Assembly: GCA_013697735.1 (NCBI GenBank)
Contig: JACCWH010000050.1
Location: forward strand, 62-64,061
Direction of reading: 5' to 3'
Source of the DNA: Trueperaceae bacterium
Lineage (GTDB): Bacteria; Deinococcota; Deinococci; Deinococcales; Trueperaceae
Length of the DNA: 64,000 nucleotides
Shown here: one piece after another, positions 22,067-47,169 of the stretch
How the letters are laid out: each line of letters begins with the position of its first letter
Numbering within the stretch: position 1 is the first letter of the stretch
Position numbers and translations under genes: made by a program
Notes under the pieces: generated by a model
Database searches by the model: none
Seen by the model: only the letters and a program-made list of their open reading frames with translations
Told to the model about the DNA's origin: nothing

Positions 22067-22428
22067 TGGGACCGCGGCCCGTGCGGGCGAGGGGACCGCG
22101 GATCCCCGAGAGCGCCTTCCAAGCGCAGTTCCTCACGTACGCGAGCATGAACGGCTGGCGATCGTTCCACGCTCGGCCCGCCCAGAACCGCCGGGGGGAG
22201 TGGGGCACCGCGGTGGCGGGCGACGGCAAGGGTTTCCCCGACACCGTGCTGCTCCGCGACGAGCGCATCGTCGTCGCCGAGCTGAAGGCCGAGGGCGGCA
22301 CCCTGCGCCCCGACCAGCGCGCCTGGATCGCCGCTTGGCGCCTCACTCCGGCGGAGGTCTACGTGTGGACGCCGGAAGATTGGTCGGTGATCTTCAAGGT
22401 TCTGAGCCGTGTCACGCGAAGGGGTTGA
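22066..22428 (+). CDS. VRR-NUC domain nuclease
   Basis: GFPDTVLLRDERIVVAELKAEGGTLRPDQRAWI matches the PD-(D/E)xK VRR-NUC pattern. The ATG overlaps the dnaB TGA. It is the terminal part of track ORF 20641..22428. Confidence 0.75.
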   Translation: MGPRPVRARGPRIPESAFQAQFLTYASMNGWRSFHARPAQNRRGEWGTAVAGDGKGFPDTVLLRDERIVVAELKAEGGTLRPDQRAWIAAWRLTPAEVYVWTPEDWSVIFKVLSRVTRRG

Positions 22429-22469
22429 CACGCGGAGGTTTAGGTTATACAATGCGGGCGGAGGAAACC
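22411..22469 (+). promoter_or_regulatory. cassette promoter P1
   Basis: TTGACA 22425-22430, 17-nt spacer, TACAAT 22448-22453, GGAGGAAACC, ATG 22470. Member of the 9-copy cassette family. Confidence 0.7.
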
Positions 22470-22727
22470 ATGAAGAAGCCAGCCAAGACCATCAAGATCG
22501 CCGTCGACTCGAAGGGCAAGCGCTACCGCATCCGCCGCGACGGACGCTGCTACCAGTGGTCGAGCGTCGCCTCGTCCTACCCTTACGCCGCCGCCGTCGA
22601 CCAGATCGAAGCGGAGGGGGGCCACGTCGAGATCGAGCCGAACCCCTACTACGAGGCCGAGCTGAAGCGCTACGAGGACGCGAAGATCCGGCGCGACTGG
22701 AACCTGTGGCTGGGATTCGGTCGATGA
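22470..22727 (+). CDS. hypothetical early protein
   Basis: 85 aa. First ORF behind cassette promoter P1 (GGAGGAAACC ATG). Confidence 0.65.
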   Translation: MKKPAKTIKIAVDSKGKRYRIRRDGRCYQWSSVASSYPYAAAVDQIEAEGGHVEIEPNPYYEAELKRYEDAKIRRDWNLWLGFGR

Positions 22728-23038
22728 ATAACGGCGAGGGGGGCCCCACGGGGCCCCACCCCCTACCCCTCGGCCGAGTCGTCGCCACCCCCGGCGCGAT
22801 CGACCTACTCGACCGCCTCGGCGGACCCCGAAGCAAGTTGACGATCGCCACCCTGATCCGCCGCCACTCGAACGGCGACTGGGGCGACCTCTGCGACGAG
22901 GACCGACAGGTCAACGTCGACGCGCTCGCGAACGGCGAGCGAATCATGTCGGTCTACACCGTGCACGACGCGCGCCTCTACGTGATCACCGAAGCCGACC
23001 GCAGCGCCACCACCTTCCTGCTCCCGAGCGAATACTGA
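22724..23038 (+). CDS. conserved small protein with GDWG motif (family common on plasmids and phages)
   Basis: LGRVVATPGAIDLL...RHSNGDWGDLCDEDRQVN...ITEADRSATTFLLPSEY matches a widespread family of unknown function that I recognise from memory. ATGA overlap with the upstream gene. Confidence 0.65.
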   Translation: MNNGEGGPTGPHPLPLGRVVATPGAIDLLDRLGGPRSKLTIATLIRRHSNGDWGDLCDEDRQVNVDALANGERIMSVYTVHDARLYVITEADRSATTFLLPSEY

Positions 23039-23059
23039 GGCCGGACCCGCCCTGGACGG

Positions 23060-23077
23060 GGGCGCCTTCGGGCGCCC
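23060..23077 (+). terminator. hairpin with TTCG tetraloop
   Basis: GGGCGCC TTCG GGCGCCC, located between the gene ending at 23038 and cassette P2. Weak T-tract (TCGTTATC). Confidence 0.45.
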
Positions 23078-23082
23078 TCGTT

Positions 23083-23145
23083 ATCACGCGATAGGGTTGA
23101 CACGCAGAGGTTTAGGTTATAGCATGGGTCTTAGGAGGAAACACC
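23083..23145 (+). promoter_or_regulatory. cassette promoter P2
   Basis: TTGACA 23097-23102, 17-nt spacer, TAGCAT 23120-23125, GGAGGAAACACC, ATG 23146. Confidence 0.7.
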
Positions 23146-23355
23146 ATGAAGCAGCCCAGCCCCGCACAAGTCAAGCTCCTCGAAGCAATGAGCAACGGCG
23201 CCACCCTGACCATCAGCACCATGTACGATCGCTCCGCCTATCTCGTCGACGGATCTTCGCGGCGGAAAGTCTCCCTCGCGACCGCCATGGCCGTCGCCGA
23301 GCGCCCCGAAGTCCGCCGTAAGGCCGGGGGCTACGTGCTCCGCGGGGGGGCGTGA
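23146..23355 (+). CDS. hypothetical early protein
   Basis: 69 aa, behind cassette promoter P2. Confidence 0.6.
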   Translation: MKQPSPAQVKLLEAMSNGATLTISTMYDRSAYLVDGSSRRKVSLATAMAVAERPEVRRKAGGYVLRGGA

Positions 23356-23555
23356 GCGCCATGCCCGAGACCGCCACCACCCCCGAGCCCATCCTGATCC
23401 GTCGACTCTTCCACCCCTACGGGACCTCACCCCCCGTCTGGCAGGTCTTCCGCTGGCAGGGCTCCCACGTCGTCAACCTCGGGAAGTGGACGACCGAGGC
23501 GAAGGCGCTCACCGCGAAGCGCGCGATCGAGAAGCAGGAAGCCGCCGATGCCTGA
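23352..23555 (+). CDS. hypothetical protein
   Basis: 67 aa. GTG start overlaps the upstream stop. Confidence 0.5.
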   Translation: MSAMPETATTPEPILIRRLFHPYGTSPPVWQVFRWQGSHVVNLGKWTTEAKALTAKRAIEKQEAADA

Positions 23556-23793
23556 CGAAGCGCGCCCGACCCTGCTCGTGCCTGAGCCGTGGAACCTGGA
23601 CGATCACCACCTCGGCGGCTACCGAGAGGCCGACGTCGGCGACGCGCTCGCGTTCCTGGGGCTGACCGTGGATCACCTGGCCTATGCGATCGCCGCGCTT
23701 CGGTATCGGCATCGCGGTCTCGGGGTCGATGAGGAGACGGAGGTCGCGCTAGAAGCCGTCCTCGATCGTCTCGACGAGGAGAGAGCGCCGTGA
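23548..23793 (+). CDS. hypothetical protein, paralogue of 24115..24399
   Basis: 81 aa. Shares MPDE.RPT..., DALAFLGLTVDHL and VLDRL.EE with 24115..24399, including a 36-nt identical DNA stretch. Confidence 0.6.
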   Translation: MPDEARPTLLVPEPWNLDDHHLGGYREADVGDALAFLGLTVDHLAYAIAALRYRHRGLGVDEETEVALEAVLDRLDEERAP

Positions 23794-24122
23794 CCGACTA
23801 CCTGCCCAACGTGAGCGGTCTGCTGCGTGTCTGTGCAGGATGCCGTACGATCGTTACCCCCGAGCAGTTGCAGGGTTCCGATTGGCACGACGTGTTCTTC
23901 CACGGCGACCACGCGCCTTGCGGCCCCGTCCTGTCATACGTGGCGTCTCGCGCGGACCTGCTGCGAGCGATCCACCCGAGACTGACAGAGCAGGACATGC
24001 GGATCGCATCCACCCTGTTCGAGGAGGAAGCCGCTCGCCTGCACCCCGACTGCATCGCGCGTGGGCGGTACGAGGCTCGCGCTGAGCGTTTTCGACCGCC
24101 AGAGGAGCCACGCGATGCCTGA
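23790..24122 (+). CDS. hypothetical Cys-containing protein
   Basis: 110 aa. GTGA overlap with the upstream gene. Contains CAGC...H..H..C, a possible metal site. Confidence 0.55.
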   Translation: MTDYLPNVSGLLRVCAGCRTIVTPEQLQGSDWHDVFFHGDHAPCGPVLSYVASRADLLRAIHPRLTEQDMRIASTLFEEEAARLHPDCIARGRYEARAERFRPPEEPRDA

Positions 24123-24399
24123 CGAGCCGCGCCCGACCAAGGTCAAGACCCTAGCCGTTCGTACCGATTACGAGTTCGGCGATGTCGAGTGGGTAAATGC
24201 CACCACCGCTGATGCGCTCGCGTTCCTGGGGCTGACCGTGGATCACCTGTCACGGCTGGCCCTCGCCGCCACCATGGGCGCAGGTACGCGGCGGTGGGAC
24301 CATCCGGTGTTTCACGAAGCCAGGGCCGAGGGCGACGTTGCCGCAATCAAGGCGGTCGCCGTCGTCCTCGATCGTCTCGGTGAGGAGGTGAAGCCGTGA
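24115..24399 (+). CDS. hypothetical protein, paralogue of 23548..23793
   Basis: 94 aa from ATG 24115 (trimmed from the track start at 24061). Uses the same ATGCCTGA overlap with its upstream gene as its paralogue. Confidence 0.6.
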   Translation: MPDEPRPTKVKTLAVRTDYEFGDVEWVNATTADALAFLGLTVDHLSRLALAATMGAGTRRWDHPVFHEARAEGDVAAIKAVAVVLDRLGEEVKP

Positions 24400-24593
24400 A
24401 CCTTCGGCTGCGCTGGCTCTATCTGAGGGTGTGGTGCAGCTCGCGCTGGCGCTGGGTAACGGGGCAGCCACCGCGCACCTTCACCGAGCACGAGCGCGCG
24501 CAGATCAGGTGGATGCTGCACGAGTCGGGCGCCGACGCGAAGACGATGGATCTCGTCGACGAGCGCATCGAGCGGCGACGGAGGGGGCCGTGA
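24396..24593 (+). CDS. hypothetical protein
   Basis: 65 aa, Trp/Arg-rich. GTGA overlap with the upstream gene. Confidence 0.45.
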   Translation: MNLRLRWLYLRVWCSSRWRWVTGQPPRTFTEHERAQIRWMLHESGADAKTMDLVDERIERRRRGP

Positions 24594-24598
24594 ACGAC

Positions 24599-24660
24599 GT
24601 CACGCAATAGGGTTGACACGCTCGGGGTTTAGGGTATAGGATGCTGGTGGAGGAAACACC
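24599..24660 (+). promoter_or_regulatory. cassette promoter P3
   Basis: TTGACA 24613-24618, 18-nt spacer ending GGTTTAGGGTA, TAGGAT 24637-24642, GGAGGAAACACC, ATG 24661. Confidence 0.7.
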
Positions 24661-25803
24661 ATGACGACGCGCACCGATCCCCACAGCCCCAAGAACTTCG
24701 AGCCCACGCACTACACCTTCATCGGCTGGATCTACACCGGCTCCAACGTCGAAGCCGCCGACGCCCTCAACGATCCCGAGGCCGTCGACTTCATGGACGC
24801 GCACCCGCACGTCGGCGTCTACGGCGCGAGCCAGTGCGATCACTGCGGCTCGCGCTTCGCCTACGGCGCCGTCTTCTCCTACCGCGGCGAAGGCTGGATC
24901 ACCGTCGGCCACGACTGCGCCTCCGGCCGCTTCAACTGCCCCGACCGCTTCACCTTCGAGCTGGCGACCATGCGCCGGAAGGTCGCCGCCCTGCGCGAGT
25001 ACGGCAAGAAGAGCGCCGCCGTCCGCAAGCTGATGGCCGCGCACCCGGACCTCGCCGTCGCCGCCGAGTGGAGCACCGAGGCCTGGGAGATCCGCAACGA
25101 TCTCCGGGCGCAAGACACCGAAGAGGGCGAGCGCGAAGCCCGCGTCCTCGGCCACCTCGTCGGCTTCAACATCGACACCATCCGCGACATCGTCGCGAAG
25201 CTCTTCCGGTACGGCTCGATCTCCGAGAAGCAGACCGCCTTCGTGATCCGCCTCGCCCGAGAGGGCCAGGAGAAGCTCACGCAGGCCAAGGCGATCGCCG
25301 AGCGCATCGCGGCTATGGAGCCCCTCACCGCGGGTCGCCAGGCGCTCGAAGGCACCCTGAAGAGCGTCAAGAGCTACGACGGCTTCAACGGCCCCGTCTG
25401 GAAGATGGTCGTCGCCCTCGACTCCGGCCACGCCGTCTTCGGCACCGTCCCCGGATCCCTCTGGGAGGACGCCAACCGCATCGCCTTCGGCGAGGGCACC
25501 GTCCCGATGGATGGGCTGAAGGGGATCCGCGTGCGCTTCGACGCCAACGTCGACCCGAGCGTCGGCGATAACGACTTCGCGAAGTACAGCCGCCCGACGA
25601 AGTGCGAGGTCCTCGACGTCACCCCCATGCGCGCCGCCCAAGCGCGCGCCGAGGCGAGCGAGATCGAGCGCCGCCTCGCCCAGGTCGCCGAGCTGGCCGC
25701 CAACGATGCCGACGACGCGGCCTGGACCGAGGTTGCCGCGAAGCTCGCAACCCGCCGCGCCGAGGTTGCCGCGCGAGTGGCGATCGTCACGCAAAGGAGT
25801 TGA
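24661..25803 (+). CDS. hypothetical early protein (380 aa) with N-terminal Cys/His cluster
   Basis: Behind cassette promoter P3. Contains CDHCGS...GHDCAS. Its stop codon lies inside the -35 box of P4. Confidence 0.7.
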   Translation: MTTRTDPHSPKNFEPTHYTFIGWIYTGSNVEAADALNDPEAVDFMDAHPHVGVYGASQCDHCGSRFAYGAVFSYRGEGWITVGHDCASGRFNCPDRFTFELATMRRKVAALREYGKKSAAVRKLMAAHPDLAVAAEWSTEAWEIRNDLRAQDTEEGEREARVLGHLVGFNIDTIRDIVAKLFRYGSISEKQTAFVIRLAREGQEKLTQAKAIAERIAAMEPLTAGRQALEGTLKSVKSYDGFNGPVWKMVVALDSGHAVFGTVPGSLWEDANRIAFGEGTVPMDGLKGIRVRFDANVDPSVGDNDFAKYSRPTKCEVLDVTPMRAAQARAEASEIERRLAQVAELAANDADDAAWTEVAAKLATRRAEVAARVAIVTQRS

Positions 25804-25847
25804 CGCCAAGTAGGTTTAGGGTATAGGATGGTCTCGGAGGAAACACC
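25786..25847 (+). promoter_or_regulatory. cassette promoter P4
   Basis: TTGACG 25800-25805, 18-nt spacer, TAGGAT 25824-25829, GGAGGAAACACC, ATG 25848. Confidence 0.7.
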
Positions 25848-26231
25848 ATGATGAAGATCGTCGCCCGCCGCCGCACCATCGAGATCGAGAACCTTCACCG
25901 CGTCTTCCAGCACGCCACCCACTCCAGCTCCAGCTACTCCTTTTCGTGCCACCCCAACGGGGACGTCGACTTCAACGCGCTCGCCCCGATCGCGGCCCAG
26001 AACGCTCGCGAGCTGCTCGCTGGCCGCGACGCCGACTACCGCGACGTCGGCGTGCGCATCAGCGCCGAGCGCCAGGTCGATCCCGCCATCGGCCAGTGCG
26101 AGTGTGGCCAGCGCACCTCGCTCTGGACCAACGACAACGAGTGCGGCTGTGGCCGCTGGTACAACGCGAGCGGCCAGGAGCTACTCGCCCCCGACGCCCG
26201 CGATCGCGACGCCGAGCGGGCGGGCTACTGA
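25848..26231 (+). CDS. hypothetical Cys-rich protein
   Basis: 127 aa, behind cassette promoter P4. Contains the zinc-ribbon-like sequence GQCECGQ...NECGCGRWYN. Confidence 0.6.
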   Translation: MMKIVARRRTIEIENLHRVFQHATHSSSSYSFSCHPNGDVDFNALAPIAAQNARELLAGRDADYRDVGVRISAERQVDPAIGQCECGQRTSLWTNDNECGCGRWYNASGQELLAPDARDRDAERAGY

Positions 26232-26386
26232 TGCACGCCGCCCAGGCCGAAGCCAAGCGCATCGCGCTCCTCTGCGCCGCCGCCGCCGCCGCCGTCGCCC
26301 TCCGTGAACTGAGCGGCCGACTTCGCGAGATCTCGAACCGCCTCGCCGACCTGGACCGCACGCTCGAACCGCCCCGCGATCACTGA
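26231..26386 (+). CDS. hypothetical small protein (51 aa)
   Basis: ATGA overlap with the upstream gene. Hydrophobic Ala-rich segment followed by a helix. A strong hairpin follows. Confidence 0.45.
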   Translation: MHAAQAEAKRIALLCAAAAAAVALRELSGRLREISNRLADLDRTLEPPRDH

Positions 26387-26401
26387 CACAAGCGCAGCAC
26401 G

Positions 26402-26431
26402 AGAGGCCCCTCGCTCACCCGGGGGGCCTCT
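26402..26431 (+). terminator. hairpin (9-bp stem)
   Basis: AGAGGCCCC ... GGGGCCTCT after the stop at 26386. Marks the end of accessory cluster A. Confidence 0.5.
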
Positions 26432-26441
26432 GCTATCCTCC
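26431..26441 (+). promoter_or_regulatory. extended -10 promoter candidate (TATCCTCC class)
   Basis: TGcTATCCTCC lies immediately after the 26402-26431 hairpin. The flanks CTCTGCTATCCTCC are identical to the copy at 923-937. It is upstream of the fibre-like block. Confidence 0.45.
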
Positions 26442-26514
26442 GCCGCGATAGCGGCCGGGCGACACCACCATCACGGTGATTCCCCCAGGGCTCGGTCAAC
26501 GCAACGGAGGGCCC

Positions 26515-26916
26515 ATGGCCGCAATGTCCGACTTCCTCGAATCCGCGCTCGCCGCGCACATCTTCAAGAACACGGCTTTTGCGACACCCGGCAATAGCCT
26601 TTTCGTGGCCGCGTTCGTCGGCGACAACGGTCTCGAAGCGGGCACGCTCACGAGCGAGGTTGCGGGCGGCGCGTACGCCCGCCAACAGGTCGTCGCCGCC
26701 GGGTGGACGCAGACGGGCGGCGTCGTGGCGAACACCGCCGCCGTCGAGTTCCCCCTCGCCACCGCCTCGTGGGGCACCGTGACGCACGTCGCCATCATGA
26801 GCGCGATCACCGGCGGCAACGTCCTCGTCCACGGCCTGCTCGCCTCCTCTCGCGTGATCGGGAACGGCGACCAGCTCAAGTTCGCAGCGGGCGACTTGAC
26901 TCTCACCTTCCTGTAG
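26515..26916 (+). CDS. conserved phage protein of a family usually encoded beside tail-fibre genes
   Basis: The pattern ...EVAGGAYARQQV...NTAAVEFPLATASWGTVTHVAIMSAITGGNVL...GDQLKFAAGDLTLTF is a recurrent phage family recognised from memory. GGAGG lies 5 nt upstream of ATG 26515. Confidence 0.65.
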   Translation: MAAMSDFLESALAAHIFKNTAFATPGNSLFVAAFVGDNGLEAGTLTSEVAGGAYARQQVVAAGWTQTGGVVANTAAVEFPLATASWGTVTHVAIMSAITGGNVLVHGLLASSRVIGNGDQLKFAAGDLTLTFL

Positions 26917-27297
26917 GTGAACGCGCTCCGCTGGAGCGTCCGCTATTGGCATGGGGACGATCGCTTCTCCACCGTCGATTCGGCCACCAGCCGATGGCGC
27001 GCGCTCCCGGTCGACGGCGTCGTCTGGGTCCACGTTTGGAACGGTGCGTACCGGCACGAACTAAAGGGGATGGACAACTACTGGCTTATGGAGGACGTTC
27101 ACAGCTACGGACTCTATAACGACCCCGAGAGCCTCTCGTGGTACGCCAACCCGGCCGCCCCGCAGGCGTTCGCGTTCGTATGGCCGACCCCCGAGACCGC
27201 CATGCCCCTCGCGAACGCCCGCCCGCCCGCCCGCGTTCATACGCTCATCGGCGTCATGATGCCCGACTCGCTCGCGCGCGCTGAGGGGATCCTCTAA
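26917..27297 (+). CDS. hypothetical protein
   Basis: 126 aa. GTG start immediately after the upstream TAG. Trp-rich. Confidence 0.55.
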   Translation: MNALRWSVRYWHGDDRFSTVDSATSRWRALPVDGVVWVHVWNGAYRHELKGMDNYWLMEDVHSYGLYNDPESLSWYANPAAPQAFAFVWPTPETAMPLANARPPARVHTLIGVMMPDSLARAEGIL

Positions 27298-29363: not shown

Positions 29364-29372
29364 GGGGAAGCG

Positions 29373-32224: not shown

Positions 32225-32256
32225 CACGCGAGCGCGAGAGGCGGCCGACAGTGAGA

Positions 32257-32517: not shown

Positions 32518-32533
32518 CCCTCGGGAGTGTGCT

Positions 32534-33231: not shown

Positions 33232-33236
33232 CACAC

Positions 33237-37334: not shown

Positions 37335-37336
37335 GC

Positions 37337-37397
37337 GTCACGCGATACGGTTGACGTGGCCCCCCCCAAGGCGCTAGGCTCGACCCCGGAGGAACCA
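37337..37397 (+). promoter_or_regulatory. cassette promoter P5 (diverged copy)
   Basis: GTCACGCGATACGG left arm, TTGACG 37351-37356, 18-nt spacer (lacks TTTAGGGTA), TAGGCT 37375-37380, GGAGGAACCA, ATG 37398. Confidence 0.55.
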
Positions 37398-37445
37398 ATG
37401 CAAGAAGCCGCTACCGCCCACCCTGACCCTCGCGTGACGCCATGA
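37398..37445 (+). CDS. 15-codon leader ORF coupled to 37442..38428
   Basis: The cassette RBS (GGAGGAACCA) is positioned for ATG 37398. The ORF MQEAATAHPDPRVTP ends in a TGA that overlaps ATG 37442 (ATGA). Confidence 0.4.
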   Translation: MQEAATAHPDPRVTP

Positions 37446-39522: not shown

Positions 39523-39528
39523 GAGATT

Positions 39529-39660
39529 CGCGACACCGCGACACTGGGAGCGCCCGAAACGACCGTAGCGCCGCACGCGAAACGGTGAAACGCGGCTATC
39601 ATGCGCTGCCAGGGGGAGCCATGACCGATCAGCCGCCCATCGCCGCACCATCGTGAAACC
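39529..39660 (+). repeat. short direct repeats upstream of terS
   Basis: Tandem CGCGACAC CGCGACAC at 39529-39544. GAAAC(G/C) occurs at 39556, 39579, 39587 and 39655. Confidence 0.4.
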
Positions 39661-40525
39661 GAAAGCCAAGGCGCCCCTCACCGTGGCGGAGAAGCGCGTC
39701 GCGCGAGCCAAGCGCACCGCGCGAGAGAAGGCGGCGAAGCACCCGAAGGAGCACCCGAAGTGCGGAGCGAGGAAGCGCCAGGGCGAAGGAACCTGCAAGA
39801 TGCACGCGGGCTGGGGCACCGACCACGTCGGTTACGGCCGCTGCAAGCGGCATGGGGGCAGCACGATCACGCACCGCCGCGCCGCCGCCAGGCAGATCGA
39901 GGAGGAAGCCGCGCGGGACACGCCCTACGAGGAGCTGGTCAAGCGCACGGACCTCGCCGACCTGATCGTCGAGCTGAAGAGTCGCAGCGACATCGCCGAC
40001 ATCACCGAGGAGCTGGCGCTCGCCCGCGCGGTCACGATCAACTTCATCAACCGCGCCGACGAGATGGAGCACGCCCTCCTACGCTGGTCAGCGAGCTTCG
40101 ATCCCTCCTACCGAGAAGCGCAACAGCTTCACCTGCACGAGCTGATCGACGCCCGCGCGAGCGAAGAGTGGGAGCGCTACACCGAGCTGATGGAGCGCCA
40201 ACCCGACCCCCTCGCCTTCGTCGATCGACCGAAGAAGATCATCGACCTCGCCAACGCCGTGAAGATGCTCCGCGACGTCGTCGCGATGGCCGACCGAGTG
40301 CTGGAGCGACGCGACGCCGGAGCGATCCCCGTACGCGACCTAGAGCGCGCGTTGGGGGAGATCGTCGGTGTCACTGAAGGCGCCATACGAGAGAACATTG
40401 GGGACGTCGCTCTTCGCGCAGCTATCCTCGCCGCGATCGAGCACGGCTGGTCCTCCATCGTCCTTGGACGTCGCGACCCGGCTGACGAGCGCACTCAGGA
40501 CGTTCACAGCCGACTCGCCAACTAG
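39653..40525 (+). CDS. terS: putative small terminase subunit
   Basis: Lies directly upstream of the large terminase. Basic N-terminus with the Cys/His motif CGARKRQGEGTCKMHAGWGTDHVGYGRCKRHGG, then a helical domain. The call rests mainly on position. Confidence 0.5.
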   Translation: MKPKAKAPLTVAEKRVARAKRTAREKAAKHPKEHPKCGARKRQGEGTCKMHAGWGTDHVGYGRCKRHGGSTITHRRAAARQIEEEAARDTPYEELVKRTDLADLIVELKSRSDIADITEELALARAVTINFINRADEMEHALLRWSASFDPSYREAQQLHLHELIDARASEEWERYTELMERQPDPLAFVDRPKKIIDLANAVKMLRDVVAMADRVLERRDAGAIPVRDLERALGEIVGVTEGAIRENIGDVALRAAILAAIEHGWSSIVLGRRDPADERTQDVHSRLAN

Positions 40526-42056
40526 CCGCTCCTGGACCTCCGCCCAACGAGCGCGCCTCAAGAGCGGCGAGTGCTCCCTCGTCGAGTGGGCCAGCTACTA
40601 CCTCCCCGACCTCGCGTACCTGGAGCCGGGCGAGATCCACCGCCGCATCGTCGCCAGCTTCGGCAACGGCGACTCCCTACGCGCGGCCGCAATGGCGTCG
40701 CGCGGCTCGGCGAAGTCGACGCTCATCGGCGTAGCGAACACCCTCCGCCTCGCCGCGCTCGGGCGCAAGCGCTTCATCGTCTACGTCTCACCCGAAGCCG
40801 AAGCGCACCTCGCGCGGATCCTCAACCAAGTGGTCGAGAACGATCGACTGCTCTTCGACTACCCGCACCTCCGCCCCCAGGACCACCGCCGCCTGAAGAT
40901 CATGCGCAAGCGCAAGCGCAAAGAGACGCAAGCGGAGTTCACCACCGAGGGTGGCGTGACCTTCATCGCGAAGACGCCCGGATCCGCCATCCGCGGCATG
41001 GTCCGCGACGCGCACCGCCCCGATCACCTCGTCCTGGACGACATCGAGAATAAGGACACGGCCGCCAACCCCGACCGCACGCGCAAGCTCATCAAGTGGG
41101 TGAAGGAAGACCTCATGGGCCTGGCAGGCCCAGGCAACGAAGCGATGAGCATCCACGCGATCGGCACCCCCCTCGCGCACTTCACGATGATCGGCACCCT
41201 CGTCGACGAGTGGAGCGGCGGCGTGATCCCCATCCACGACGCCCTCACGGGCGAGAACCTGTGGCCCGAGGGGCTCCCCGACGAGGAGCTGGACCGCAGG
41301 CGTTACGGCTTCTGGGCCGTCTTCGACGTCGACCTCCTCCGCGAGCTGCGCTATGCGCACGACACGCCCAGCGAGCAACTACCCGAGGGCGTGAAGTTCG
41401 TGGCTGGCATGGGCGACCGCGCCTACCACCAGGAGTACGAGATGAAGCCGATCGAGGACGGCGCCGCGGACTTCCAGCGGCACTGGTTCGACGATCGCTT
41501 CATCGACGCCGACGACGTCAACCCCGCCGACTTCGTGCAAACCGTACGCTCCTGGGACTTCGCGGCCACCGAGAAGGCGGCGAAAAGCCCCGACCCCGAC
41601 TGGACGGCGTGCGTAAAGATGGGCGTTGACAAGCGTGGCAGAGTCGTTATCCTCCACGCGTGGCAGGATCGACTCACCCCGCACGCGGTCGAGCAACGGG
41701 CCCAATCCTTCGCGAGGGAGGACGGTCAACGCGTGCGCATCACGATCCCGCAGGACCCCGGGCAGGCGGGCAAATCGCAAGTGTTCAACTGGGTCGTGAA
41801 GGTACTCCGCGGCTACCACGCGACCGCCGTCATACCCAGCGGCGACAAGCGCGTGCGCTGGTCGGGGCTCTCCGCGCAGGCCGAAGTGGGTAACGTCTGG
41901 ATCGTCCGCGCCCCCTGGAACAGCACATGGCTCGATCACATGTGCCAACTCCCCTTCGGCGCGCATGACGACATCGGCGATGCATCCGCGGACGCGTTCA
42001 ACTTCCTCAACCCCGGCGAGCCCATCTGGAGCGCCATGGAGGCCTTCCCCTCATGA
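40368..42056 (+). CDS. terL: large terminase subunit
   Basis: Walker A is ASRGSAKST and Walker B is HLVLDDIE. C-terminal nuclease motifs are WDFAAT...DWTACV and GAHDDIGDASADAF. GTG 40368 has GGGGGAG 7 nt upstream but overlaps terS by 158 nt, so the start is uncertain (TTG 40464 is an alternative). Confidence 0.85.
   Translation: MSLKAPYERTLGTSLFAQLSSPRSSTAGPPSSLDVATRLTSALRTFTADSPTSRSWTSAQRARLKSGECSLVEWASYYLPDLAYLEPGEIHRRIVASFGNGDSLRAAAMASRGSAKSTLIGVANTLRLAALGRKRFIVYVSPEAEAHLARILNQVVENDRLLFDYPHLRPQDHRRLKIMRKRKRKETQAEFTTEGGVTFIAKTPGSAIRGMVRDAHRPDHLVLDDIENKDTAANPDRTRKLIKWVKEDLMGLAGPGNEAMSIHAIGTPLAHFTMIGTLVDEWSGGVIPIHDALTGENLWPEGLPDEELDRRRYGFWAVFDVDLLRELRYAHDTPSEQLPEGVKFVAGMGDRAYHQEYEMKPIEDGAADFQRHWFDDRFIDADDVNPADFVQTVRSWDFAATEKAAKSPDPDWTACVKMGVDKRGRVVILHAWQDRLTPHAVEQRAQSFAREDGQRVRITIPQDPGQAGKSQVFNWVVKVLRGYHATAVIPSGDKRVRWSGLSAQAEVGNVWIVRAPWNSTWLDHMCQLPFGAHDDIGDASADAFNFLNPGEPIWSAMEAFPS
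41626..41655 (+). promoter_or_regulatory. promoter candidate inside terL (TATCCTCC class)
   Basis: TTGACA 41626-41631, 16-nt spacer, TATCCTCC 41648-41655. TATCCTCCACGCG is shared with the copy at 59365. Confidence 0.35.
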
Positions 42057-43666
42057 CCCGACGCTCCGGTGCGCCCGAGATCGTTCGCAAGATCCGCAAG
42101 AGCCACCACGGCGAGATCGTCATGCTCTCGACGCTAGAGCAAGCCTTCGTCGGCTGGGAGGACGAGAAGTCGACGCCCGAAAGCAGCCCCCACCACCCCG
42201 CGCGAGTGCTCTCAGCGAGCGAGATCGGCCAAGTCGACTTCCTCCGCCACTGGAAACCGCGGAACTTCCTCGCGAAGGTGATCGAGGAGCCCGTCGGTTT
42301 CCTCGGCCTCGCCCGCCCCCGCATCAACGTCGTGCGCCTACAGCCCGACGGCACACGCGTGCAACTCGACCCCGACCTCGGCGAAGACAAGGCGCTACAG
42401 ACGAAGGTCGAGGACTTCTACCAACGCAAGATCCGCCCCCGCCAAGCCGACATCGTGCTGTGGCAAGGCTGGTACGGCCGCAGCTTCATCAAAGTCGCGT
42501 ACGACCCCGGGGGATTCCCCTACCTCAACGCGGACGGTGAGGTCGCAGAGTTCGAGCGAACGCCCGGGATCCACGTGATCCCCTACCCCCGCTTCGAGGG
42601 CGGCACCGAACGCGCCGAAGCGTGGCATGACGGCGACGACCCCGACCTCATCACCGCCGCAGTCGTGTACTGGAACGAACGCGACGTCGAGGACCCCGAC
42701 GACACCGTCGAGACGCGGCACGCGCAACTCCTCTACCCCGACCGGATCGAGTGGCTCGTGCACACCGGCTCCGGCTGGGTGATCGACCCCACCCGCGGCG
42801 TGAGCGGCACCGGCATCGACCCGCACACGTGGGGCGTCGTGCCGCTCGTCGAGTGCTGGAACAACGGCAAGCCCGACGTGATCGACGCGCTCGACATCCA
42901 AGCGACGATCAACAAGGACGTGTACGACATGAACGCGCACGGCAACACCGTCGCCTTCCCCCAGCGTTACCGCAAGGGTTTGATCCCCGCGGGCGGCTGG
43001 CACCGCAATCCGATCACCGGCCAAGTCGAGGACGTCCGTCCACTCAAGAGCGGTCCCCACATCGTCTGGGACGTGCCTGACGGCGGCGACGTCGGGCAAC
43101 TCCCGAGCGACGCGGGCGAGTTCCTACTCGCGAAGTACAACGGCGACATCGAGGACCTCGCGACCCTCACGCGCTCCGTGGCGATCTCGAAGATGAAGCA
43201 ATCGAACGATACGAGCGGCGAGAGCAAGCACATGGACACCGCGCAGCTCCTCGGCCCACGCCTACAAGGCAAAGCCGAGGCCCTCGGGGCCGCCATCCGC
43301 AGCGTCTACCAGACCGCCTTCGCGATGGCGCGCAACGATAGGAACGTCGCCGCCATCCTCGACATGGAGGGCTTCGAGCAGCTCGACGTCGAGGTGATCT
43401 TCGAGCTGGACATCGACCGCGACAAGACCCGCGAAGCGCAGATGGATCAACTCGACCGCAACAGCGGCAACCTGAGCCTGCAGACGTACCTGATCCGCAG
43501 GGGCTTCACCGAGAGCGAAGCGAGCAAGGAGGTCGAGCGGATTCGCGACGAGCAGGCAGCCGCGCAAGAGATCAGCGAGGACGACGAAGCGCGCGCCGTC
43601 ACGGCCGCGAAGCGCGGCGCCAACGGTGCCATCGACAAGAGGGAGCCGAATGCCGAAGCTCGTTGA
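42053..43666 (+). CDS. portal protein
   Basis: 537 aa. ATGA overlap with terL. Size and position fit a portal. Acidic C-terminus. Confidence 0.75.
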   Translation: MTRRSGAPEIVRKIRKSHHGEIVMLSTLEQAFVGWEDEKSTPESSPHHPARVLSASEIGQVDFLRHWKPRNFLAKVIEEPVGFLGLARPRINVVRLQPDGTRVQLDPDLGEDKALQTKVEDFYQRKIRPRQADIVLWQGWYGRSFIKVAYDPGGFPYLNADGEVAEFERTPGIHVIPYPRFEGGTERAEAWHDGDDPDLITAAVVYWNERDVEDPDDTVETRHAQLLYPDRIEWLVHTGSGWVIDPTRGVSGTGIDPHTWGVVPLVECWNNGKPDVIDALDIQATINKDVYDMNAHGNTVAFPQRYRKGLIPAGGWHRNPITGQVEDVRPLKSGPHIVWDVPDGGDVGQLPSDAGEFLLAKYNGDIEDLATLTRSVAISKMKQSNDTSGESKHMDTAQLLGPRLQGKAEALGAAIRSVYQTAFAMARNDRNVAAILDMEGFEQLDVEVIFELDIDRDKTREAQMDQLDRNSGNLSLQTYLIRRGFTESEASKEVERIRDEQAAAQEISEDDEARAVTAAKRGANGAIDKREPNAEAR

Positions 43667-44051
43667 CGACCTCCACTACGCCGCCGCCCTCACGCTCACT
43701 CTCAAGATCCACGAGGAAGAGACGCACGCCTTCAAGGCTCGCCTCGCCGACCGCTCGGTCGCCCTCGTGTACGACGCCATGAGCGAGATGGGCGCCGAGT
43801 TCAACGAGGCGACGGTGCGCCGTCACCTCGCGAGGATGCCCGACGTGTACGTCGAGGAGTCGCTGCGCTACATCCGCCGCGTGCTCGTGCGCGTGGGCGA
43901 GGTCGAGTTGGCGAAGAAGCTCGAAGAGGCCGAGCGCGTGGTGGGGCTCGATGATCTGCCCGAGGCGTTCCGCGATGGGTACGACGAGATGTTGCGTGGT
44001 GGGCTGCTCGGTTCGCAAGAGGGCCCGGAGCCGCGAGTCGTCACGCAATAG
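43650..44051 (+). CDS. hypothetical protein
   Basis: 133 aa from ATG 43650 (GGGAG upstream); GTG 43626 is an alternative. Its last codons (VVTQ*) lie inside the left arm of cassette P6. Confidence 0.55.
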   Translation: MPKLVDDLHYAAALTLTLKIHEEETHAFKARLADRSVALVYDAMSEMGAEFNEATVRRHLARMPDVYVEESLRYIRRVLVRVGEVELAKKLEEAERVVGLDDLPEAFRDGYDEMLRGGLLGSQEGPEPRVVTQ

Positions 44052-44101
44052 GGTTGACATGCCGAGGGTTTAGGGTATAGGATGATCTCGGAGGAAACAC
44101 C
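44040..44101 (+). promoter_or_regulatory. cassette promoter P6
   Basis: TTGACA 44054-44059, 18-nt spacer, TAGGAT 44078-44083, GGAGGAAACACC, ATG 44102. Confidence 0.7.
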
Positions 44102-44335
44102 ATGCCACGCACCGAGACCGCCAACACCGACCGCCCCACCCTCGAAGCCCTCAAGGCCCGCATCGTCGCCCTCGGCGAAACCCCCAGCGGATGCTGGGAA
44201 GACGACCACCACGTCTACGCCTTCTCCGCTCGCGGCCTCGGCTCCGGCACGTACGGCCACCCCGCGCTCACGCTCCACTGGCAAGCAGCCGGGCGCTACT
44301 ACATCGAAACGATCACCCCCCGGAAGGGGCGGTGA
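44102..44335 (+). CDS. hypothetical early protein
   Basis: 77 aa, behind cassette promoter P6. Confidence 0.6.
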   Translation: MPRTETANTDRPTLEALKARIVALGETPSGCWEDDHHVYAFSARGLGSGTYGHPALTLHWQAAGRYYIETITPRKGR

Positions 44336-44631
44336 TCGCGGTGCTCCGCATGGCCATCGCCCGCATCGACATGCACCGAACCTTCGTCTTCGAGGTCGCC
44401 GACATCCGGGCGGCCTCACGCCACTACGCCGAACTGCGCGACTTCGGCGACTACACACCGAGCCAGATGGGCGACGGGATCATCTCCGATTCCGAGGGTG
44501 AGACGATCGCGGTCGTGACCTACAACGCTCGCGTCTGGGCGTACGACGCCGACGACGTCGAACGGCGCACCGCGCTGCTCTTCGATCCCGCCGCCCCCCT
44601 CACGCCGAAACCCGGCGAGGGGGGCTTCTGA
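44332..44631 (+). CDS. hypothetical protein
   Basis: 99 aa. GTGA overlap with the upstream gene. ATG 44350 is an alternative start. Confidence 0.5.
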   Translation: MIAVLRMAIARIDMHRTFVFEVADIRAASRHYAELRDFGDYTPSQMGDGIISDSEGETIAVVTYNARVWAYDADDVERRTALLFDPAAPLTPKPGEGGF

Positions 44632-44680
44632 TGGCTCTGTACGAATCCGCTGCAGTGACCGCTCGACCACAGGAGGATCC

Positions 44681-45430
44681 ATGCAAGACACCGCTACCAC
44701 CGCTACCATCGACTTCGACGCCCTCGACGCCATGTTCGACGACGGCATGGAGTACGCCCTAGCCGCTCACGATCGCCCCGACGCCGAGGAGTGGCCGAGC
44801 GCCCCCGGCTGGTCGAGCGAGGGCTTCGTGATCGACTCGCTCGACCTGGCCTCCTGGGCCAGCCGCCGGATCGACACCGCCGAGGAGATGAAGCTCGAAC
44901 AGACCGAGTGGCGCGCCCGCGAGATCGCCCGCATCGAGCACGCCTTCACGCGCAACGTCGCGCGCCACGCGGACACCATCGCCTTCCTCACGTCGAGCCT
45001 CGAAGTCTGGCACCGAGCACGCTACGCGCTCGACAAGAAGAAGACGATCGACCTCCCGGGTGGGCGCTTGCAGATCCGCAAGTCCGTGCAGACGATCCAG
45101 ATCCTCGACGAGGTCGCCGCGATCGCGGCCCTGAAAGCGGACGAGGCGACGCGCCCCATCGTGCGGGTCGAAGAGTCGATCATCATGAGCGCGCTGAAGG
45201 CGGCCCTGGCGCAGGGCGAGGCGGTCCTGGGCGAGGAGGGTGCCGAGAGCGAGACCCCGGGCATGGTGGCCCACCTGACCACCACCGGCGAGCGCGTCGA
45301 CTGGGCGATCTGGACGCCGCCGGGTGACTCGGTGAAGTTCGCGAGTGCCAGCGCGAAGGCCGCCAAGTCGAGCGCGAAGACCGCCAAGAAGGCCGCCAAG
45401 TCGGCGGGGGCCGACGATGAAGAGGCGTAG
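44681..45430 (+). CDS. Mu Gam-like host-nuclease inhibitor protein
   Basis: GGAGGA lies 3 nt upstream of the ATG. A coiled N-terminus (IDSLDLASWASRRIDTAEEMKLEQTEWRAREIARIEH...) is followed by KKTIDLPGGRLQIRK, typical of the Mu Gam-like family. Lys/Ala-rich tail. Confidence 0.6.
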   Translation: MQDTATTATIDFDALDAMFDDGMEYALAAHDRPDAEEWPSAPGWSSEGFVIDSLDLASWASRRIDTAEEMKLEQTEWRAREIARIEHAFTRNVARHADTIAFLTSSLEVWHRARYALDKKKTIDLPGGRLQIRKSVQTIQILDEVAAIAALKADEATRPIVRVEESIIMSALKAALAQGEAVLGEEGAESETPGMVAHLTTTGERVDWAIWTPPGDSVKFASASAKAAKSSAKTAKKAAKSAGADDEEA

Positions 45431-45572
45431 CCGCCTCCGGCGTAAGGCGACCTCCCTCCACGTCTACGTGCGTCCCTGGACGCACTCCGAGTGGGCGGGC
45501 GCGATTGTCGTCGCCCTCACCGCGCTGGGCGCGGTCGGCTACCTGATCTGGCATGTGGCGCGAAGCGGTTGA
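45417..45572 (+). CDS. small membrane protein (51 aa)
   Basis: Basic N-terminus followed by a TM helix (AGAIVVALTALGAVGYLIW). Its stop TGA lies inside the -35 TTGACA of cassette P7. Confidence 0.45.
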   Translation: MKRRSRLRRKATSLHVYVRPWTHSEWAGAIVVALTALGAVGYLIWHVARSG

Positions 45573-45616
45573 CACTCGCGAGGTTTAGGGTATAGGATGC
45601 GGGCGGAGGAAACACC
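45555..45616 (+). promoter_or_regulatory. cassette promoter P7
   Basis: TTGACA 45569-45574, 18-nt spacer, TAGGAT 45593-45598, GGAGGAAACACC, ATG 45617. Confidence 0.7.
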
Positions 45617-46168
45617 ATGACGAACGCTGCGCGCTACATCACCGGAACCGAGCAAGCGAAGATGATCCGCACCAGCCTGCGCGAGGCCTTCCCGGCCACC
45701 ACCTTCACCGTGCGCCAGTCGCGCGGCTCGGCGATCACCGTCGCCTGGGCCGACGGCCCGACCGTGAAGCAGGTCGACGCGCTCGTGCAGCGCTTCGCGG
45801 GCGGCGGCTTCGAGGCCTCCCTGGACCTCGGCTACAGCGTCCAGAGCTACGTCAAGGGCGAGCCCGTCCTCTTCGGCCAGCACTTCATCTTCGCCAACCG
45901 GCGCCTCTCCCTCGCCTTCGCATCGCGCTACCTCGCCCGCGCGAGCGCCTACTACGGTTTCAACGCCGACGCCTTCGCGCTCCGCGGTGACGGTGAGCGC
46001 GGCTACCGGATCGACGCGTCCGACACGAGGCTCGTCGGTTGGGATGCAATCGCGCTCGTCGCCAGGAAGGTCGACGCCTACTCGCACGAGGCCGCCAAGG
46101 ACTCTCCCACGGCTCGCCAGACCGGCACGCACGCGGAGGTCCCCTCGTACATCCAACGCGGCGAGTAG
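45617..46168 (+). CDS. LPD29-like protein (stand-alone large-polyvalent-protein-associated domain)
   Basis: TEQAKMIRTSLREAFPATTFTVRQSRGSAITVAWADGPTVKQVDALVQRF matches my memory of the LPD29 family pattern (TAKliR..Lk..FP..kFsVrs....sI.V.WtDGPt). Behind cassette promoter P7. Confidence 0.55.
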   Translation: MTNAARYITGTEQAKMIRTSLREAFPATTFTVRQSRGSAITVAWADGPTVKQVDALVQRFAGGGFEASLDLGYSVQSYVKGEPVLFGQHFIFANRRLSLAFASRYLARASAYYGFNADAFALRGDGERGYRIDASDTRLVGWDAIALVARKVDAYSHEAAKDSPTARQTGTHAEVPSYIQRGE

Positions 46169-46186
46169 GATCACCGCGGCTCGACC

Positions 46187-46206
46187 GGGCGCCCCACGGG
46201 GCGCCC
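46187..46206 (+). terminator. hairpin
   Basis: GGGCGCCCC AC GGGGCGCCC, between the stop at 46168 and cassette P8. Confidence 0.45.
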
Positions 46207-46213
46207 TACTCGT

Positions 46214-46275
46214 GTGCCGCGATACGGTTGACACGTGCGCAGTTTAGGGTATAGGATGATCTCGGAGGAAACACC
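46214..46275 (+). promoter_or_regulatory. cassette promoter P8
   Basis: TTGACA 46228-46233, 18-nt spacer, TAGGAT 46252-46257, GGAGGAAACACC, ATG 46276. Confidence 0.7.
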
Positions 46276-47085
46276 ATGACCCAGAACTACAACACCATCG
46301 CCCGCGTCCGCACCGGCTACCCCACCCGCGCCCCAGAGCCCAAGGACATCCTCGTGCGCATGAACGTCGACGGCACCGTCCACGAGGCCGGGCTCCTCGC
46401 GAGCCTGAAGCAGTATGGACTCCTCGGGGCCGACACCCGCGCGATCTACCTGGAGTCGTACGTCGACGGCGGCGCCCGCGACCACTTCGCGATCATGGAT
46501 GGCGGCAAGACGATCGGCTCGCTGCAGCTCCTCGGCGACGACGACAACACCCTCCACAATCGCGCCGCCGAGGGCGCCTGGCGGAACGTGATGGACGAGA
46601 AGGGCGACTCGGTCTACGAGGTCTGGTACACCACCGCCCCCGCCGCCTACGACTACAGCTACGTCCGCGCGAGCGACGCGACGCGCTTCGAGGCCACGAA
46701 AGAGGGCGCCGTGCTGCGCCGCGTCGAGATCCCCCGGGCCTCGGTGGCCTACCAGACCGCCCGCTACATGTCGGGGCTGCACATCGCCATCAACGAGGAG
46801 CAGGCCGAGCACGAGGCGCAACAGCGTTACGCCCTCGTGCGCTACGCTCGCGCCCACGTCGCGGGCGCCTACGAGGCCGGGATCTGGCTGGCGATCGTCG
46901 GCGATCGCCTCGTCGCCGATGTGCTGCGCCAGGCGCGGATCGACTCGGGCTGGAGACCCGGCGACGACCACCCAGCGCTCGCTACGATCGCCGTGGCGCT
47001 CCTCGACGGCTCCACGTCGCCCCTGGCGCGCCAGGTCGACCGCCTGGCGCTCCTGGGGGCTCTGACGCGCCACCTGAGCCGCTGA
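46276..47085 (+). CDS. hypothetical early protein
   Basis: 269 aa, behind cassette promoter P8. GC3-rich frame. Confidence 0.65.
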   Translation: MTQNYNTIARVRTGYPTRAPEPKDILVRMNVDGTVHEAGLLASLKQYGLLGADTRAIYLESYVDGGARDHFAIMDGGKTIGSLQLLGDDDNTLHNRAAEGAWRNVMDEKGDSVYEVWYTTAPAAYDYSYVRASDATRFEATKEGAVLRRVEIPRASVAYQTARYMSGLHIAINEEQAEHEAQQRYALVRYARAHVAGAYEAGIWLAIVGDRLVADVLRQARIDSGWRPGDDHPALATIAVALLDGSTSPLARQVDRLALLGALTRHLSR

Positions 47086-47106
47086 TCTCCCCCCACTCCC
47101 CCGGTC

Positions 47107-47169
47107 GTCCCGCAAAGCGGTTGACACCGGGGGAGTTTAGGGTATAGGCTTGCAATCGGAGGAAACACC
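47107..47169 (+). promoter_or_regulatory. cassette promoter P9
   Basis: TTGACA 47121-47126, 18-nt spacer, TAGGCT 47145-47150, GGAGGAAACACC, ATG 47170. Confidence 0.65.

Follow-up and report, generated by a model that had tools for sequence, protein, structure and literature searches.

Nine copies of a putative promoter and ribosome-binding-site cassette in a phage genome from a Trueperaceae assembly

What is the role of a sequence of 62-66 nucleotides (nt) that recurs nine times in a phage genome, each time ending in the start codon of a different gene? The sequence, here called the cassette, occurs in contig JACCWH010000050.1 of a Trueperaceae bacterium assembly (GCA_013697735.1). We analyzed positions 62 to 64,061 of its forward strand; this stretch of 64,000 nt is termed the window, and positions given below are counted from its first letter. 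A preliminary description had read the cassette as a promoter joined to a ribosome-binding site (RBS). Our analysis of the nine copies and of their counterparts in related phages leads us to regard them as probable strong expression cassettes for the host RNA polymerase, most likely used early, that also sit at mosaic junctions.

All copies lie on the + strand, and they comprise eight near-identical copies and one diverged copy. Block-wise scans of the window place the strong copies at 22411..22472 (c1), 23083..23148 (c2), 24599..24663 (c3), 25786..25850 (c4), 44040..44104 (c6), 45555..45619 (c7), 46214..46278 (c8) and 47107..47172 (c9), and the diverged copy at 37337..37400 (c5). These nine are the copies listed in the preliminary description, and the scans yielded no others on either strand with up to four mismatches per block. 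In every case (9/9), the ATG at the 3' end opens an open reading frame (ORF). A 30-nt core, TTGACA-N7-GGTTTAGGGTATAGGAT, has six matches with at most three mismatches, whereas 0.00 are expected from 100 dinucleotide-preserving shuffles. Shorter segments of the cassette are similarly confined to it. TTTAGG occurs eight times on the two strands of the 64 kb and GGAGGAAACACCATG occurs seven times in exact form, in both instances exclusively within cassettes. Nine occurrences of TAGGNTATA correspond to eight cassettes and a minus-strand site at 18392-18454, which is described below. Cassettes also contain seven of the nine TTGACA hexamers; the two found elsewhere compare with 5.2 expected, a marginal depletion. 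The depletion of TAGGAT outside cassettes is stronger (one occurrence versus 9.1 expected), but this hexamer holds a stop codon.

The cassette consists of three fixed blocks with two linkers between them. Block 1 is a left arm followed by TTGACA, block 2 is GTTTAGGKTA followed by TAnnnT, and block 3 is GGAGGAAACACC followed by ATG. The left arm, GTCACGCRAWAGGG, is 14 nt long, abuts the -35 element and is GC-rich, with an A/T core of only 3-4 nt. The -35 element is TTGACA in seven of the nine copies and TTGACG in two (c4 and c5). It is separated from the -10 element by 18 nt in seven copies and by 17 nt in c1 and c2. The -10 hexamer is TAGGAT in five copies, including c3 and c4, TAGGCT in c5 and c9, TACAAT in c1 and TAGCAT in c2. 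The GGAGG of the Shine-Dalgarno (SD) sequence follows 6-8 nt after the -10 element and precedes the ATG by 5-7 nt; in seven copies, the SD block GGAGGAAACACC is exact and abuts the ATG. Measured from the start of the -35 element, the ATG lies at 48 nt in five copies and at 45, 47, 49 and 49 nt in the others, as previously noted. The first copy can thus be written GTCACGCGAAGGGG-TTGACA-N17-TACAAT-N6-GGAGGAAACC-ATG. The diverged copy keeps the left arm, TTGACG-N18-TAGGCT, GGAGGAACCAATG and GGAGGAACCA-ATG, and is without the GTTTAGGGTA spacer block.

Conservation within the cassette is sharply partitioned. Expressed as mean pairwise identity among the eight strong copies, it is 0.73 for the left arm, 0.96 for the -35 element, 0.84 for the -10 element and 0.97 for the SD block. 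The GTTTAGGKTA spacer block, at 0.96, equals the -35 element and exceeds the -10 element. By comparison, the linker after the -35 element (N7) has an identity of 0.38 and that after the -10 element 0.37, which is the background level of the 30-nt flanks (0.31-0.42). The earlier statement that conservation extends beyond the hexamers is therefore well founded. Decay of the linkers to the background level means that the copies are old and that purifying selection holds the blocks. Both the alignment and the measured distances confine length variation to the linkers, which indicates that the left arm is locked to the -35 element, the spacer block to the -10 element and the SD block to the ATG. 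Coding constraint does not explain this conservation, because the genes downstream of the cassettes are unrelated to each other and three upstream genes end inside a cassette: a TGA lies within the -35 element at 22426-22428 (the end of the VRR-NUC gene, in c1) and at 25801-25803 (in c4, which overlaps the 3' end of a 380-amino-acid (aa) ORF at 24661-25803), and a TAG lies in the left arm of c6 at 44049-44051. As judged from these alignments, the data show blocks under selection, not merely recent duplicates.

Not every regularity among the copies belongs to the cassette as such. A CACGC direct repeat on both sides of the -35 element, which the preliminary description had given as a general feature, is present only in the adjacent copies c1, c2 and c3 (3/9), and we rejected it as a cassette feature. 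We also rejected as a general feature a 9-bp inverted repeat that flanks the -10 element (GACACCCAG...CTGGGTGTC). It is absent from the window and was seen in only three near-identical copies of lineage A (see below), with a palindrome in one lineage-B copy. A scan of the window with Rfam gave no match.

Relatives of the phage were identified as portal homologues with 50-61% identity on metagenomic contigs of 20-66 kb, and in six lineages we examined the sequence around the portal or DnaB gene, to about 10 kb in either direction. The cassette architecture is kept in all six, at syntenic positions: one follows the ~140-aa gene behind the portal directly, a second follows the replication module, and some lineages have a third in the divergent promoter region. 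The first of these is the position of c6, and it is syntenic in all related lineages. Lineage A (L077 and L082) has at least four copies per contig of the form RTCACCAGCGRGG-TTGACA-N8-TATGAGGGTA-TACKCT-N6-8-AGGAGG-N5-ATG, and the version in lineage B (L080 and L087) is nearly identical. In lineage C (L084 and L088), L084 carries four copies of GTTCTCAGGCGGGG-TTGACA-...CTGATCATGG-TATAAA-...AGGAG. Lineage D (L089) has two copies of TTGACA-N18-TA(A/G)(C/T)AT-N6-7-AGGAGGAAAGACC-ATG, and the version in lineage E (L090) is TTGACA-N16-TGA-TAACAT-N9-AGGAGGAAGACG-ATG. Canonical hexamers, with an invariant TTGACA, and a short distance from the -10 element to the SD sequence are common to all lineages, and left-arm and spacer sequences differ from one lineage to another. 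The gene content behind the cassettes is almost wholly non-homologous between lineages, with conserved flanks; homologues of the genes behind eight of the nine window cassettes are absent from the 21.5-kb loci around the portal in L077 and L082. Proteins encoded behind cassettes in the relatives include anti-restriction-like ArdC-N/M78 and SprT-like ones. Between L077 and L082, the orthologous cassettes downstream of the portal have kept their blocks, and both linkers are wholly different; this is independent evidence for constraint on the blocks.

The preliminary description had considered that the motif might turn out to be a generic host promoter. Among 185,579 GTDB representative genomes, however, an exact 16-mer of the cassette gave single chance matches, almost all in low-GC unrelated taxa; it was absent from every Deinococcota representative genome, and no genome had more than one copy. 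In its exact form, the sequence is therefore not a common promoter of such hosts. The same 16-mer had only single chance matches in IMG/VR, and a gapped 21-base pattern searched in JGI metagenomes and IMG/VR had two AT-rich chance matches.

Two other repeats were noticed in the related contigs. In lineage E, four tandem copies of GGGCGTACA (L090, 5238-5276) stand directly upstream of the post-portal -35 element; this array, which is absent from the window, has the look of iterons or of regulator sites. In lineage B, a 28-nt motif, CGCGCTGCCCTGCCGGGAGAGGAA..., recurs nine times in L080 (1512-4452), and most copies end a few bases short of the start codon of a small ORF, one of a series that precedes the terminase gene. 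It could be either a start-associated repeat similar to those of mycobacteriophages or the conserved 3' ends of tandem paralogues.

Taken as a promoter, the cassette would be a complete and compact expression signal for host RNA polymerase with the housekeeping sigma factor. All nine copies have a -35 element near TTGACA and, 17-18 nt downstream, a TAnnnT, with the SD sequence 6-8 nt past the -10 element, and the promoter-plus-RBS reading fits this geometry. The conserved octamer TATAnnnT permits two registers for the -10 element. We consider TAnnnT at 17-18 nt the more likely, because no copy of the window or of lineages A, B and D lacks the T at -7, because c5 and lineage D retain this register only, and because the spacers then come to 17-18 nt and c1 reads TACAAT. 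With either register, transcription is predicted to start 0-5 nt upstream of GGAGG and to produce a leader of about 12-17 nt, essentially the SD sequence and its spacer. The geometry likewise predicts the start at the RBS and the leader of about 12 nt that had been proposed before.

Such promoters should fire without phage factors, probably early after DNA entry, and variable accessory genes would be expressed from them at a high and uniform level. Early expression is suggested by the identifiable cargo (the end-protection protein Mu Gam and an LPD29 protein in the window, and the ArdC-N/M78 and SprT-like proteins in relatives), which is typical of functions required right after DNA entry. In Deinococcus deserti, a TATAAT-like -10 element is found at 94% of mapped starts, no general -35 element is present, and 60% of mRNAs are leaderless (PMC4007540). 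Given this background, a perfect TTGACA combined with an SD sequence would mark unusually strong, leadered units.

The additional conserved blocks are probably promoter-strength elements. In the preferred register, the GTTTAGGKTA block spans -22 to -13 and overlaps the Z-element interval from -22 to -18. The Z-element is spacer sequence at -24 to -18 that is read by the beta' zipper of Thermus aquaticus RNA polymerase and that raises promoter strength with this enzyme when the -10 element is non-consensus (PMC3173786). Correspondingly, the cassette has an A/T-containing patch, GTTTA, at -22 to -18, in register with a non-consensus -10 element, and the polymerase on which the Z-element was defined comes from the same phylum as the presumed host. 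Recognition of this kind could offer an account of the spacer block that involves only the host enzyme.

The cassettes also appear to mark places where gene content has been exchanged. In blastn comparisons of L077 with L082, one homology block (14264-16188 in the former, 14577-16548 in the latter) opens, in each genome, exactly with the first base of cassette 2 and extends into the SD sequence of cassette 3, where it ends; another block ends 33 nt past cassette 4. In pairwise alignments of the two contigs, homology switches on or off at a cassette in three of four positions. Furthermore, the homologue of the 328-aa gene behind c5 lies in the post-portal variable region of lineage A. Patches of about 65 nt that recur at unit boundaries would also act as homology patches for the exchange of gene modules, which would explain the presence of cassettes at mosaic junctions in the relatives. 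We regard recombination as a likely secondary consequence of having identical patches of this length at the boundaries.

These same observations could be taken further, by supposing that homologous or site-specific exchange of gene units is the primary role of the cassette and that the promoter is a by-product. The cassette-to-cassette homology block and the start or end of homology at the cassette in three of four pairs agree with such a role, as do the nearly complete difference in cassette gene content between lineages with conserved flanks, the location of the 328-aa gene elsewhere in lineage A, and the mosaic nature of the left arm, whose positions 8 and 10 occur in all four combinations. 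A model of modular shuffling has also been put forward for the promoter-early stem-loops (PeSLs) of T4-type phages (PMC4122927). However, recombination alone would preserve identity over the whole length instead of three blocks between linkers at background level, and the blocks coincide exactly with the contact points of RNA polymerase and ribosome. No close relative of the window phage exists in the collections searched to show a cassette-mediated insertion or deletion, and the endpoint statistics, given below, are weak. We therefore think it improbable that exchange is the main function. Somewhat less doubtful, although still unlikely in our view, is that the left arm, the GTTTAGGKTA block or both bind a phage-encoded regulator, such as a protein with an Xre-type helix-turn-helix (HTH), through which one protein would switch all nine units together. 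This proposal concerns the extra blocks alone and is compatible with promoter function; repressor sites at the early promoters of phiC31 and the stoperators of Cluster A phages are analogues. It would accommodate a spacer block as conserved as the -35 element, extra blocks that vary between lineages when the hexamers do not, and the lack of the spacer block in c5, which heads the packaging operon and could be regulated differently. A candidate protein is also available, in that the ORF at 16606-17181 (- strand) has an Xre-type HTH at residues ~130-172. Its lineage-B homologue is only 33% identical and has a different recognition helix, so that co-evolution with the lineage-specific blocks is possible, and the comparison does not speak against the HTH protein as the binder. 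Yet we found no convincing dyad or direct repeat in the cassette. The best candidate, GTCA-N11-TGAC, has arms of only 4 bp; lineages A and B have N10 in place of N11, lineages C and D lack the dyad, and it was set aside as a weak operator with a spacing that is not conserved. Nor does the window contain isolated copies of the left arm or spacer block elsewhere, for example beside the HTH gene. The TAGGTTATA block is also part of the leftward promoter of the ParB/HTH/RepB genes, and lineages D and E keep the promoter design with quite different spacers.

A further reading would make the left arm and spacer block not contacts for the host RNA polymerase but the recognition site of a co-evolving phage factor, whether an activator or repressor or a recombinase-like protein, and the cassette an integron-like platform for gene capture and co-regulation in a previously unknown group of Deinococcota phage-plasmids; we hold this to be less credible than a primary role in exchange. 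Promoters that serve a phage-encoded sigma factor or RNA polymerase, and not the host housekeeping holoenzyme, would fit the extended conservation, which is reminiscent of promoters used by such polymerases, and large unannotated ORFs are available (27297-29363, 29373-31877 and a 3090-aa ORF). But TTGACA and TAnnnT separated by 17-18 nt form the housekeeping consensus and are the sole parts invariant across all lineages, and no sigma-factor or RNA polymerase domain was detected among the ORFs scanned. Also, the N-terminus of the 3090-aa ORF matches minor head families, and the ORF at 29373-31877 encodes a repeat protein beside the fibre gene. This makes a dedicated phage polymerase very unlikely. 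Less plausible again, to the point that we give it almost no weight, is a non-functional repeat, either recent duplicates or a selfish miniature element. The presence of multiple copies of uniform length between genes would suit such a repeat, but the linkers have decayed and the blocks have not, every copy points the same way as the genes and terminates in a start codon, no terminal inverted repeats or target duplications were found at the cassettes, and orthologous sites are kept where portals are only 50-60% identical to that of the window.

Several points count against the host-polymerase promoter that we favor. The activity, timing and strength of the cassettes as promoters are all inferred, and the assignment of the host depends on binning (the NCBI label of a metagenome-assembled genome) and a GC content of 68%; the portal and DnaB proteins match proteins with this Trueperaceae label, on a contig of 64,145 bp, at 100% identity. 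The 16-mer search of representative genomes covered the motif in its exact form. The GTTTA patch does not match the published Z-element sequences AACCT, AACAT and AAATT, and the GC-rich left arm is unlike classical UP elements. An 18-nt spacer is one longer than the optimum in Escherichia coli, and the four L084 copies of lineage C have a 19-nt spacer to TATAAA. The -10 element may instead be read as TATAnn at 15-16 nt, in which case the G at -14 is invariant; in lineage C, where the sequence reads TGG-TATAAA after a 19-nt spacer, TATAnn is the sole register available. Finally, the coincidence of homology endpoints with cassettes is, taken singly, only weakly significant, since by a rough estimate two of about 18 endpoints fall in cassettes that cover about 2.6% of the region, and block ends at cassettes could reflect junctions that fall between genes anyway.

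By analogy, the host-polymerase cassette would be a functional counterpart of T4-type PeSLs and of morons, real but not a new kind of element. It appears closest in function to PeSLs and T4 early promoters, with a moron-like placement between the portal gene and a MuF-like head-protein gene. PeSLs, described in T4-type myoviruses, carry a sigma-70-like promoter, an SD sequence and a start codon at the 3' end, and in RB49 and phi1 the promoter is a near-perfect TTGACA-N17-TATAAT (PMC4122927). All nine cassettes have this order of promoter, SD sequence and terminal start codon. As with PeSLs, they are present in multiple copies in hyperplastic, ORFan-rich regions that differ between related phages, and they have sequence versions particular to each lineage. 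PeSLs also sit at indel or replacement junctions between close relatives and undergo excision between tandem copies; the cassettes may occupy comparable junctions in the related pair L077/L082. In two copies (hairpins at 23060 and 46187), a GC stem-loop is located just upstream of the promoter. The comparison with T4-type promoter and stem-loop units made in the preliminary description is apt in view of the cassette-to-cassette homology block in L077/L082 and the non-homologous cargo between lineages. Yet the cassette does not belong to the PeSL family by descent. Its stem-loop is not integral, since a strong hairpin precedes only two of the nine copies and relatives mostly lack one; the upstream arm is GC-rich rather than AT-rich; conservation of a 10-nt spacer block equals that of the -35 element; and the leader is cut to about 12 nt. 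Nor is the phage a T4-like myovirus: it has a tape-measure protein, an SPP1-type portal, a MuF-like head protein, a genome of ~64 kb and a likely Deinococcota host, and we found no similarity of the window to T4. The description of PeSLs is reportedly also due to Arbiol in 2010.

Other known systems share part of this design. T4 has about 40 early promoters that are conserved beyond the hexamers, including upstream A-tracts. Like these, the cassettes are many copies of a putatively strong promoter for the host holoenzyme in front of small early genes, but their sequence is different and GC-rich, and the RBS and start codon are fused at a fixed distance. The morons of lambdoid phages are said (by Juhala and Hendrix in 2000) to be units of promoter, gene and terminator. 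The resemblance lies in accessory genes that are inserted between conserved modules and bring a promoter, sometimes also a terminator hairpin, with them. However, individual morons have unrelated promoters, whereas one promoter sequence is reused nine times here and many units have no terminator. The start-associated sequence (SAS) of Cluster K mycobacteriophages is a 13-bp motif linked to translation that has no promoter, and the ESAS element upstream of it is a pair of 17-bp inverted repeats (PMC3203893). A comparison with SAS had also been suggested earlier, and it is valid for an asymmetric repeat in one orientation, with an SD core a few bases before the ATG of non-structural genes, with stop codons of upstream genes inside the repeat, and with no occurrence in the host genome. 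It fails in that GGAGGAAACACC is unrelated to the SAS sequence GGGATAGGAGCCC, and the RBS block of the cassette is the 3' third of a full promoter. Where ESAS would lie, the window cassettes have a canonical promoter and no inverted repeats.

If these assignments are correct, the cassettes provide a ready map of transcription units in an uncultured phage group and mark the genes that are likely to be expressed first. This would make them useful for annotation, and the genes behind them (Mu Gam, ArdC-like and LPD29 proteins and many ORFans) become candidates for functions in anti-defence or host takeover. As an independent and phylogenetically remote example of the PeSL principle, a parallel of moderate interest, the cassette supports the idea that phages in general shuffle genes by way of such elements. 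It may also serve as a small promoter-RBS part, probably a very strong one, in high-GC Deinococcus-Thermus hosts, and its spacer block is a natural test case for Z-element-like recognition by the RNA polymerases of this group.

Two variable regions, at 22.4-26.4 kb and 44.0-48.0 kb, contain the eight strong copies and the genes that they precede, about twenty in all. Most of these genes are ORFans, with few or no family matches. The unit behind c1 (U1) consists of the DUF6330 gene 22470-22727, coupled through ATGA to 22724-23038, and U2 consists of six small overlapping ORFs (23146-24593). U3 is the 380-aa ORF mentioned above, and U4 comprises ORFs 25848-26231 and 26232-26386. Copy c6 lies directly 3' of the 141-aa gene that follows the portal gene, and U6 contains a 77-aa ORF (44102-44335) and the Mu Gam-like gene (44681-45430). 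U7 is an ORF with an LPD29 domain (45617-46168). U8 (46276-47085) and U9 (47170-47979) are ORFans of 269 aa each; paralogy of the two was rejected, as there is no similarity between them. The unit of the diverged copy, U5, begins with an ORF of 15 codons, joined through ATGA to the 328-aa gene (37442-38428), and this operon runs on without a further cassette through a small-terminase-like gene (39653-40525) to the large terminase and portal genes. The 15-codon ORF (37398-37445, + strand; MQEAATAHPDPRVTP), whose TGA overlaps the ATG of the 328-aa gene, could reflect either translational coupling or the remnant of a shifted start.

It had been proposed that the cassettes drive all accessory genes and that each forms an autonomous unit of promoter, ORF and hairpin. 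Both statements go too far. One copy, c5, heads the packaging operon, long stretches of the genome with other small genes carry no cassette, several units hold two to six genes, and five units have no strong terminal hairpin. The four hairpins reported earlier do exist, but strong hairpins end only U1, U4, U7 and U9. That of U1 (23060..23077, + strand; GGGCGCC-ttcg-GGCGCCC) is 5 nt upstream of c2, and the intergenic fold that includes it has a predicted energy of -27 to -31 kcal/mol. The hairpin of U4 (about 26402..26432, + strand) has a stem of ~11 bp, that of U7 (46187..46206, + strand; GGGCGCCC-cacg-GGGCGCCC) is 7 nt upstream of c8, and that of U9 is at 47987..48004 (+ strand; GGGCGCC-ctcg-GGCGCCC). 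No U tract is present at any of the four. A strong GC hairpin is thus located directly upstream of only c2 and c8, and six copies have no stem there at all; U6 is followed by two weaker 7-bp stems, which lie 20-87 nt upstream of c7. A further candidate terminator at 22740-22757 was rejected because it lies inside the ORF 22724-23038. The stem GGGCGCC/GGCGCCC is common to the hairpins at 23060, 46187 and 47987, with different loops, and appears to be a small repeated element of its own, apart from the cassette.

The minus-strand site at 18392..18454 resembles a partial tenth cassette. It has TTGCGC-N17-TACGCT and ends in GGAGGAGTC-ATG at the start of a ParB-like gene (17600-18394), with a 31-nt leader that contains a small hairpin before the SD sequence. 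It carries the TAGGTTATA spacer/-10 block (18430-18438) that is also found in c1 and c2. Because this block is shared with the leftward ParB/HTH/RepB promoter, a general promoter element fits better than an operator of lytic genes. Two sites on the + strand match the 3' half only: TTGGCA-N19-TACGCT-N7-GGAGGAACCAA-ATG at 18879-18930, before the gene 18928-19230, and TACACT-N7-GGAGGATCGC-ATG at 48175-48200, which has no -35 element and precedes a 58-aa ORF (48198-48374). About one such 3'-half-only site is expected by chance.

Judged by its genes, the window appears to be a phage or phage-plasmid genome of ~64 kb, with tailed-phage genes and plasmid-like features. A tape-measure protein is encoded at 1424-7144. 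A module with genes for a RepB primase, the Xre-type HTH protein and the ParB-like protein occupies the minus strand at 14358-18394, which suggests an element that may be maintained as a phage-plasmid; no integrase was seen among the ORFs scanned. Genes for a replication initiator, DnaB and VRR-NUC (19680-22428) lead into c1. Downstream of U4 are a gp80-like fibre gene (26476-26916), the large repeat protein (29373-31877, + strand) and an M23 peptidase (34652-35221), followed by the genes for the small-terminase-like protein, large terminase and SPP1-type portal (39653-43666). The second variable region is followed by an RNase T-type exonuclease (48374-49165), the 3090-aa ORF (49362-58634, + strand) and the major head protein (60568-61680).

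The deposited phage records that were searched contain no close relative of this phage group. Neither megablast nor blastn found similar DNA among about 50,000 deposited phages, and the best tblastn match of the terminase was below 30% identity. Searches of IMG/VR with the portal protein and a portal alignment returned no relatives, and a full-text literature search that combined Truepera or Trueperaceae with phage found no work on Trueperaceae phages.

Three ORFs merit a brief comment. ARAGORN calls a tRNA-Leu(gag) at 27873-27962 (- strand), on the strand opposite to and inside a 688-aa ORF (27297-29363); Rfam finds nothing there, and the call is probably a false positive. The 834-aa ORF at 29373-31877 (+ strand) contains ~17 copies of a 60-nt (20-aa) periodic repeat, especially at 30497-31732. 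It is probably a tail-fibre repeat protein, and its 1375-aa counterpart in lineage C contains similar repeats. In the 3090-aa ORF, only residues 45-200 match minor-head and head-morphogenesis families in PHROGs, which we take to be of the MuF/gp7 type, and neither a Pfam match nor a PDB sequence match was found. This ORF lies between the variable region and the capsid genes, with the separate LPD29 gene upstream, and relatives carry versions of 4007-4037 aa; it may encode a packaged polyvalent protein.

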